55,858 bases of DNA from a virus (Duplodnaviria > Heunggongvirae > Uroviricota > Caudoviricetes): the IMG/VR virus record IMGVR_UViG_2660237930_000002; one strand, 5' to 3'. The notes beneath the pieces were generated by a model. The model made no database searches. It was given only the letters and a program-made list of their open reading frames with translations, and was not told the origin of the DNA. Made by a program: the position numbers and the translations under genes. Positions 53,066 through 53,461 of this stretch are shown in pieces. Numbering within the stretch: the stretch's first letter is position 1; each line of letters begins with the position of its first letter.

Positions 53066-53461
53066 TTACATCTGGCTTAAGTTTTTCTCATCCCAGATGT
53101 GCTTTCCATCAAGTAACGTTTCCATCGGCGTTCGGCCACTGCACATTTTTCCCTGATGGGTTCGCTCATTATTATAGTGAACCCGCCATTCATCAAGAAC
53201 CGATTGTAATGCTTCAAGATCATCATATAACTTTTTGCGGAACGTCACCTGATAAAACTCGTTCAGTATCGTTTTATGGAACTGCTCGCAGATACTATTG
53301 GTCTTAGATGACATTGCTTTCGTTTTCGTATGCTCAATATCATTTATCGCCAGATAAAGCTGGTAATCATGCTGCTCCACTTTACCGCAATCTCTTGGTG
53401 TATTGAGAGGCGGGTTATAAAATAAATACTGATACCATGAGGGCGGATCAATCGTGGTCAT
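53066..53461 (-). pseudogene. Transposase remnant (C-terminal part of a DDE/rve integrase-core transposase, IS481/IS3-like)
   Basis: ...NSICEQFHKTILNEF...WRVHYNNERTHQGKMCSGRTPMETL matches the C-terminal end of rve-domain transposases; no N-terminal HTH or full catalytic core. Confidence 0.6.

Follow-up and report, generated by a model that had tools for sequence, protein, structure and literature searches.

The fragment of an IS481-family transposase that separates an ATPase-Toprim gene from a receiver gene in a 55,858-nucleotide Caudoviricetes record (IMGVR_UViG_2660237930_000002; hereafter the window, to which positions refer unless another locus is named) is very probably a fossil marking the seam between two independent, integrase-less islets at the attachment site in the guaA 3′ end. 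The two genes, in this corrected reading, are separate guaA islets, neither prophage morons nor the halves of a broken two-gene system. The remnant itself is an ordinary, inert scar, already annotated as a pseudogene in RefSeq, and is of little weight on its own, truncated IS copies being common. The features of the locus are collected in the table.

Table. Features of the guaA region in the window, with the evidence for each.
Feature	Position	Strand	Evidence or remark
guaA	11711-13288		followed by the prophage integrase
att core at the current guaA end, prophage left boundary, ATTGAGTGGGA	13274..13284	+	11-bp core
middle att core ATTGAGTGGGA, prophage/islet boundary	51893..51903	+	identical to the true guaA end of K. 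pneumoniae L011
islet-borne guaA tail and terminator	51904-51983		after the middle att core
module B: truncated IS and membrane-anchored receiver gene	51893-53391		Kluyvera sichuanensis L015 matches 53391-51893 only
membrane-anchored stand-alone receiver (REC) protein, 256 aa, intact	52202..52972	-	Pfam Response_reg; 1957 same-length homologs
35-bp spacer, IS end to receiver start, with ribosome-binding site and GTTATGAGCAATA element (52985-52997)	52973..53007	-
right terminal inverted repeat, TGTATTAGATCAGACCTGATCTGACA on the + strand	53008..53033	-	alignment to complete elements with the same repeat at both ends
IS481-family remnant, 3′-terminal 384 bp	53008..53391	-	blastn, 94.0% against L034; also aligned with two further relatives of full length
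transposase-derived coding remnant, residues 240-346 of 346	53066..53389	-	BLASTP 91%, tblastn, PGAP pseudogene
native ATPase 3′ flank, 85 bp, non-IS	53392..53476	-	conserved in Serratia and P. aeruginosa loci without the IS
module A: single ATPase-Toprim gene	53392-55227		Serratia L005 matches window 55227-53391 only
intact ABC-type ATPase (AAA_15/AAA_21) with C-terminal Toprim/DUF4435-like domain, 489 aa, TTG start	53477..54946	-	Pfam, PADLOC
original E. coli guaA 3′ end, now displaced, with the third att core TGAGTGGGAATGA (core 55212-55220), distal islet boundary	55212..55233	+	K-12 guaA-yfgI match
original guaA terminator	55251-55278		after the third core

The remnant carries an open reading frame of 131 aa with an ATG start (53066-53461, minus strand); gene calls for it exist in E. 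coli, K. pneumoniae and Kluyvera sp. Its product matches Pfam rve_3 (E = 5.5e-10) and NCBIfam transpos_IS481 (model positions 206-283 of 284, E = 9e-23), the latter with a score of 81 bits, under the 224-bit full-length cut-off because only a fragment of the transposase exists. Aligned by BLASTP with a complete 346-aa IS481-family transposase encoded on Salmonella plasmid CP054717, ORF residues 25-131 correspond to transposase residues 240-346 at 91% identity; tblastn places the transposase-derived coding stretch at 53389-53069, and RefSeq/PGAP labels 53066-53389 as an ‘integrase core domain-containing protein, incomplete, missing N-terminus’. A transposase C-terminal remnant between the ATPase and receiver genes, as given in the original prediction, is therefore borne out by the ORF, its rve_3 and IS481 matches and the amino acid identity, and it is indeed the C-terminal end only that is left, in the form of 107 residues rather than the ∼90 estimated. 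The distance of 15 bp between the ATPase stop codon (53477-53479) and the start of the ORF was likewise given correctly, but the first 24 codons (53392-53461) are not transposase: they are non-IS DNA from the 3′ flank of the ATPase gene.

At the nucleotide level, the IS-derived DNA corresponds to positions 818-1201 of a 1201-bp element. Its right inverted repeat (26 bp), for which a search around 52980-53065 had been suggested, is intact and matches the right ends of complete IS481-family copies in alignment. No left inverted repeat (TGTATTAG... in the other orientation) was found across the whole window, and no further pieces of the same IS lie elsewhere in it. The junction at which the ATPase flank ends and the IS starts reads CAAGAG/ATTGCGG (53392/53391), with at most 1 bp of microhomology on inspection of the sequence; the left junction, at which a target-site duplication would show, was destroyed by the deletion. 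The full plasmid transposase contains an HTH_29 domain (residues 11-74) and an rve domain (162-267). The remnant lacks residues 1-239, and with them HTH_29 and most of rve, so that two of the three DDE residues are absent and the DDE core is reduced to the end that carries the E. It is unable to transpose, because the left end, the DNA-binding HTH and all but one of the DDE residues are gone.

Three complete relatives of the IS were recovered: an intact 1201-bp copy on the Salmonella IncF plasmid CP054717, a frameshifted copy in E. coli CP55_Sichuan, and a copy annotated ‘ISSod13 family’ in the P1-like phage RCS47, with nucleotide identities to the remnant over the last 384 bp of 94%, 88.6% and 82%, respectively. 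The right inverted repeat and the C-terminal transposase sequence are common to the remnant and this ∼1.2-kb IS481/ISSod13-annotated group; in contrast to the complete elements, the remnant consists of positions 818-1201 only and has no recognizable target duplication. Searching PLSDB for a plasmid-borne receiver gene, or for a full IS adjoining the receiver gene, returned IS copies only, plus one mislabeled chromosome, and a search of the literature for the element name ISSod13 returned nothing relevant to Enterobacteriaceae.

The window preserves a series of attachment sites in which guaA is followed by a ∼38.6-kb prophage (13285-51892), a 3.3-kb islet (51904-55211), the displaced guaA end, and yfgI. 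The islet is bounded by att cores at 51895-51903 and 55212-55220. The 9-bp sequence TGAGTGGGA occurs four times in the window against an expectation of 0.36, three of the copies lying at boundaries. A fourth exact copy, at 35496-35504 within the prophage and distant from the boundaries, is probably due to chance. In E. coli K-12 the gap between guaA and yfgI measures 92 bp, and matching sequence, including the guaA terminator, reappears in the window from 55212 on. Between the islet cores lie the ATPase gene, the IS remnant and the receiver gene only, with no recombinase gene. Islets with direct core repeats at both ends and a displaced host gene end past the distal repeat are also found in Klebsiella, Kluyvera and Pseudomonas, each with the host's own terminator.

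Prophage and islet occur separately. Among 5,426 complete E. coli genomes, 28 carry the islet with an identical junction; it stands directly after guaA, with no prophage, in 22 of these, next to this prophage in two, and next to a related prophage in four. The prophage end is found without the islet in ∼530 E. coli genomes, and in the record of phage TL-2011b the same prophage end adjoins yfgI. Homology stops exactly at the att core both in islet-only and in prophage-only E. coli genomes. With its three boundary cores, the region is a tandem accretion at one attB site. The two genes had been described as cargo genes; the islet is evidently not prophage cargo (a moron), because the core at 51893-51903 separates it from the prophage and 22 of the 28 E. 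coli genomes with the islet lack the prophage.

The islet in turn splits cleanly into two modules when compared by blastn with the loci fetched from other hosts (module A, the ATPase; module B, the truncated IS and the receiver gene; table). Both modules are matched in Kluyvera sp. 142359, K. aerogenes and K. pneumoniae, and the A+B unit is located at guaA in E. coli, Klebsiella and Kluyvera. Module A begins, in each of its hosts, straight after the host's own displaced guaA end and terminator. In P. aeruginosa, where its other end is formed by the functional guaA end, it is a single-gene, integrase-less, att-flanked unit of ∼1.9 kb. The ATPase gene occurs alone, among unrelated neighbors, in Serratia (S. 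marcescens) and P. aeruginosa, and the receiver gene occurs without the ATPase, also among unrelated neighbors, in Kluyvera sichuanensis, Dickeya, Acidithiobacillus and others. Because each gene is found without the other, the two are not obligate partners, and there was no fixed pairing for a deletion to disrupt.

Islet identity between E. coli and K. pneumoniae (97-99.7%) exceeds that of guaA (87%), which indicates that the islet passed between genera recently. A K. pneumoniae locus (L011, 1766-4496; also L012-L014) has its ATPase gene split by an IS3-family element into pieces of 214 aa and 274 aa; in K. pneumoniae with the split ATPase, the receiver gene is 100% identical to that of the window and the remnant is nearly identical.

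In all enterobacterial loci with module B, the junction between the right end of the IS and the receiver gene is identical, while its 5′ breakpoint varies among three lineages. The IS begins at position 818 in the window, Kluyvera sp., K. aerogenes, K. pneumoniae and seven metagenome contigs; at position 799 in the Kluyvera sichuanensis lineage, where it directly adjoins a guaA-terminator-like hairpin that follows a CSS-EAL gene (L015, 4498-4593); and at position 720 in contig L035 (1-120), where different sequence precedes it at the contig end and the IS piece is the longest found (482 bp). Since breakpoints 818, 799 and 720 have one common right-end junction, the comparison points to one IS insertion followed by nested or independent deletions from the 5′ side, in agreement with the insertion and subsequent loss of the IS 5′ part that had been proposed.

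No full-length IS was found upstream of the receiver gene in ten loci from a protein scan of genome contigs or in three further context look-ups. Scanning metagenomes for the IS-end/receiver junction yielded seven loci, all with breakpoint 818 and none with a complete IS, and an intact module B ending in a distal att site of its own was not among the loci examined. A search for E. coli loci without the remnant (distant blastn with the ATPase half and the receiver half against the 5,426 complete genomes) returned the same 28, all with the remnant. Because no locus with a complete IS and no module B with a distal att site was found, the state before the deletions is reconstructed rather than observed. 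In Rosenbergiella nectarea (L033, 4000-4937), a receiver gene adjoining guaA is 5′-truncated, with homology from residue 47 and no IS upstream, a different deletion at the same boundary.

The anatomy, the junctions, their distribution, the constraint on the flanking genes and the decay of the remnant are shown directly; the order of events we infer as follows. In an ancestral enterobacterium, one IS copy would have entered 35 bp before the receiver gene, and lineage-specific deletions would then have taken its 5′ side. In the lineage of the window, such a deletion would have joined IS position 818 to DNA lying 85 bp beyond the stop codon of the ATPase. Module A would thereby have lost ∼90 bp of its non-coding tail, and the att copy that stood between the two modules would have gone too, along with anything that module B carried at its far end. 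Loss of this internal att copy would have left A+B as one 3.3-kb unit between GAGTGGGA cores, and the prophage of the window would represent a later, separate arrival at the same guaA site.

The extent of the loss on the ATPase side can be read from loci that have neither the IS nor the receiver gene: downstream of the ATPase orthologs in Serratia marcescens and P. aeruginosa, the 3′ flank is 92-93% identical to that of the window over the aligned stretch, and runs ∼90 bp further into a guaA 3′-end copy. A degenerate att core within the 85-bp flank (ATTGAGAGGCGGG) was considered and rejected, all 85 bp being native ATPase flank conserved in Serratia and Pseudomonas. In this flank, RNA folding predicts a hairpin (-27.2 kcal/mol, z = -5.5) with a U-rich run after it; the stem measures 12 bp, with arms at 53458-53469 and 53429-53440. 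The hairpin, which is conserved in loci ranging from E. coli to Pseudomonas, probably serves as the ATPase terminator, despite an unusually large loop of 19 nt.

The ATPase itself is likely a single-gene anti-phage candidate. Its best PADLOC matches are PDC-M01A, AriA and fused AriAB, with no model reaching its family cut-off, and its C-terminal 206 residues give a weak DUF4435 match (E = 0.011, below cut-off). The motifs EGEDDE and RDGDG are invariant. Foldseek ranks GajA and retron Eco8 at the top, GajA with an E-value of 1.9e-8 but a TM score of only 0.36 for a model with a mean pLDDT of 76; the sequence, compared with the PDB, gives weak P-loop-level matches only, and so tells less than the structural comparison. 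Its AAA_15/AAA_21 head and EGxxD...DxD motifs liken the protein to GajA, the retron Eco8 effector and AriA-AriB fusions (OLD/PARIS-type). In contrast to GajA or Old, it is shorter (489 aa) and has no partner gene, and its role in defense is putative. These matches support the label ‘ATPase-Toprim’, whereas any place in a specific defense family is putative.

The receiver protein, which has no PADLOC match, belongs to a gene with a wide distribution. Distant homologs (66-87% amino acid identity) in Acidithiobacillus, Sulfuritalea, Paraburkholderia, Chlorobium and others have no IS and stand among unrelated neighbors. The 35-bp spacer is 97-100% conserved in the lineages with the IS remnant, and its GTTATGAGCAATA motif is kept upstream of distant homologs in other phyla. 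Homology between receiver loci starts at a GTTATGAGC core ∼25 bp before the start codon, and homologs at 83-87% amino acid identity on Acidithiobacillus, Noviherbaspirillum and Chlorobium contigs are followed by a typical attC (TCATAAC ... GTTAGGC; L025, 4750-4860; L028, 3900-4010 and 4760-4850; L029, 4750-4860). With the GTTATGAGC core upstream and attC downstream, as in homologs at 85% amino acid identity, the gene looks like an integron gene cassette elsewhere. In contrast to such cassettes, the copy in the window has a degenerate downstream attC (52175-52210) and an upstream site interrupted by the IS end ∼10 bp before the core, with no integron integrase or array.

Remnant and flanking genes have fared differently since the junction formed. 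In K. aerogenes the remnant has acquired a stop codon and a frameshift, and the IS terminus a 5-bp deletion; in the Kluyvera sichuanensis lineage, the remnant carries a 12-bp deletion and a stop codon. In two comparisons the remnant is 91.8% and 87.4% identical, versus 96.8% and 93.8% for the receiver coding sequence, and 30-45% of its columns are variable, versus 5-15% for the receiver gene, with less variation in two of its 40-bp bins (53232-53193 and 53072-53033). Among the lineages that share the junction, dN/dS is 0.09-0.14 for the ATPase gene and 0.10-0.23 for the receiver gene, the latter reaching 0.29 against the Kluyvera lineage with breakpoint 799. Neither gene has indels among the compared lineages, both are of full length (489 aa and 256 aa) when set against hundreds of homologs, and both are kept in all 28 E. 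coli and seven metagenome copies. Both flanking genes are therefore intact and under purifying selection while the remnant decays as a pseudogene. On a low-coverage metagenome contig whose flanks are identical to the window (L042, 232-630), the remnant has a 45-bp in-frame deletion (window ∼53110-53154), which could be real decay or an assembly artifact.

These observations bear directly on the suggestion that an IS-linked deletion removed partners of a two-gene cargo system and left the ATPase-Toprim/receiver locus non-functional, which we consider improbable. A deletion did occur and may have taken something at the far end of module B, and the split ATPase of K. pneumoniae shows that inactivation happens in the islet. 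However, the adjacent genes suggested as possibly removed were not on the ATPase side, where one att copy and ∼90 bp of the non-coding tail were lost but no gene of the ATPase module; the ATPase stands alone as an att-flanked single-gene unit in Serratia and P. aeruginosa; the receiver gene, too, occurs alone, among unrelated neighbors, in many taxa; and the full-length ORFs, their dN/dS of 0.09-0.29 since the junction formed and their retention in every E. coli and metagenome copy argue against a non-functional locus. That no sequence error hides a complete transposase is clearer still: the same junction recurs in 28 complete E. coli genomes, several Klebsiella and Kluyvera assemblies and seven metagenome contigs, the DNA upstream of it is the ATPase gene with its conserved flank, and no other IS fragment exists in the window, so that the chance of an assembly or sequencing artifact is negligible. 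A functional truncated protein derived from the transposase, such as a transposition inhibitor or a domesticated DNA-binding factor, would fit an ORF that is open, begins with ATG and is called in three host groups, but is very unlikely given that the frame is broken in K. aerogenes and the Kluyvera sichuanensis lineage, that the HTH and two catalytic residues are absent, and that its first 24 residues come from non-coding flank that happens to be open in the same frame.

Co-option of the remnant at the level of DNA, with the IS 3′ part giving the receiver gene a promoter or a read-through path, is less improbable, even if we regard it as doubtful. The right end of the IS lies 35 bp upstream of the receiver start codon, and any native receiver promoter would for this reason have been displaced. 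All three deletions, whether nested or independent, end at or before IS position 818, so that at least 384 bp are always kept, a constancy that could hint at selection for the IS 3′ part (e.g., as a promoter) rather than pure neutrality. A TTGATG-17-AATAAT pair overlaps a perfect TATAAT at 53196-53168 (minus strand), the two less variable bins lie within the remnant, and the hairpin in the ATPase flank may stop transcription from upstream. On the other hand, sigma-70 promoter-like matches in the remnant and spacer number three versus 5.0 expected and are thus not above chance, no convincing -35/-10 pair could be picked out by eye in the IS end or the spacer, and the TATAAT is TAGAAT in the Kluyvera lineage; the IS terminus tolerates the 5-bp deletion in K. 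aerogenes, the internal 45-bp deletion is tolerated in L042, and the remnant, taken over its full length, diverges in the manner of non-coding flank. The reading of the remnant as an inert fossil at the seam of two islets accommodates this decay.

How integrase-less islets might move is suggested by other elements at the same site. The integration site of GIsul2 is GAGTGGGA at the guaA 3′ end, where an att-flanked unit without an integrase is mobilized in trans (PMC9376610), and PIMEs use an attB site adjoining guaA (bioRxiv 10.64898/2026.01.12.698999). GIsul2 (with its internal att site and CR2-sul2 unit), PIMEs and phage satellites at guaA all resemble the region described here in having the same GAGTGGGA core, serial att copies and integrase-less, att-bounded segments. 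In contrast to GIsul2 and CR2-sul2, the islets are far smaller (1.9 kb and 1.5 kb), hold one gene each, have no identified integrase, relaxase or oriT, and have had their internal att site deleted. From the att anatomy and by analogy with these elements, we infer that the A+B unit would move by integrases supplied in trans. In our literature search on E. coli defense hotspots, we found no paper that covers the guaA-yfgI site.

Extending this analogy, we tentatively propose, as one unlikely scenario, that loss of the att copy welded two mini-islets, an ATPase-Toprim defense candidate and an integron-cassette-derived membrane receiver, into a 3.3-kb unit that spreads among Escherichia, Klebsiella and Kluyvera via the guaA-specific integrases of co-resident prophages, PIMEs or GIsul2-like islands, with the IS 3′ end serving as the receiver promoter region. 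If true, the welded unit would be among the smallest trans-mobilized, defense-carrying units described. Stacked, integrase-less, att-flanked mini-islets in any case offer a small, tractable system for trans-mobilization at guaA. For anti-phage testing, the independence of the two islets means that the ATPase should be cloned alone, with its 280-bp upstream region and the 85-bp hairpin flank. The ATPase unit (window 53392-55227; L005, 4720-6647; L010, 4709-6640) has ∼280 bp upstream and ∼175 bp downstream of the gene within ∼1.9 kb, and contains no integrase; with guaA-end repeats on both sides, it lies at the same site in Serratia, Pseudomonas, Klebsiella, Kluyvera and E. coli, and may represent a minimal trans-mobilized defense islet.
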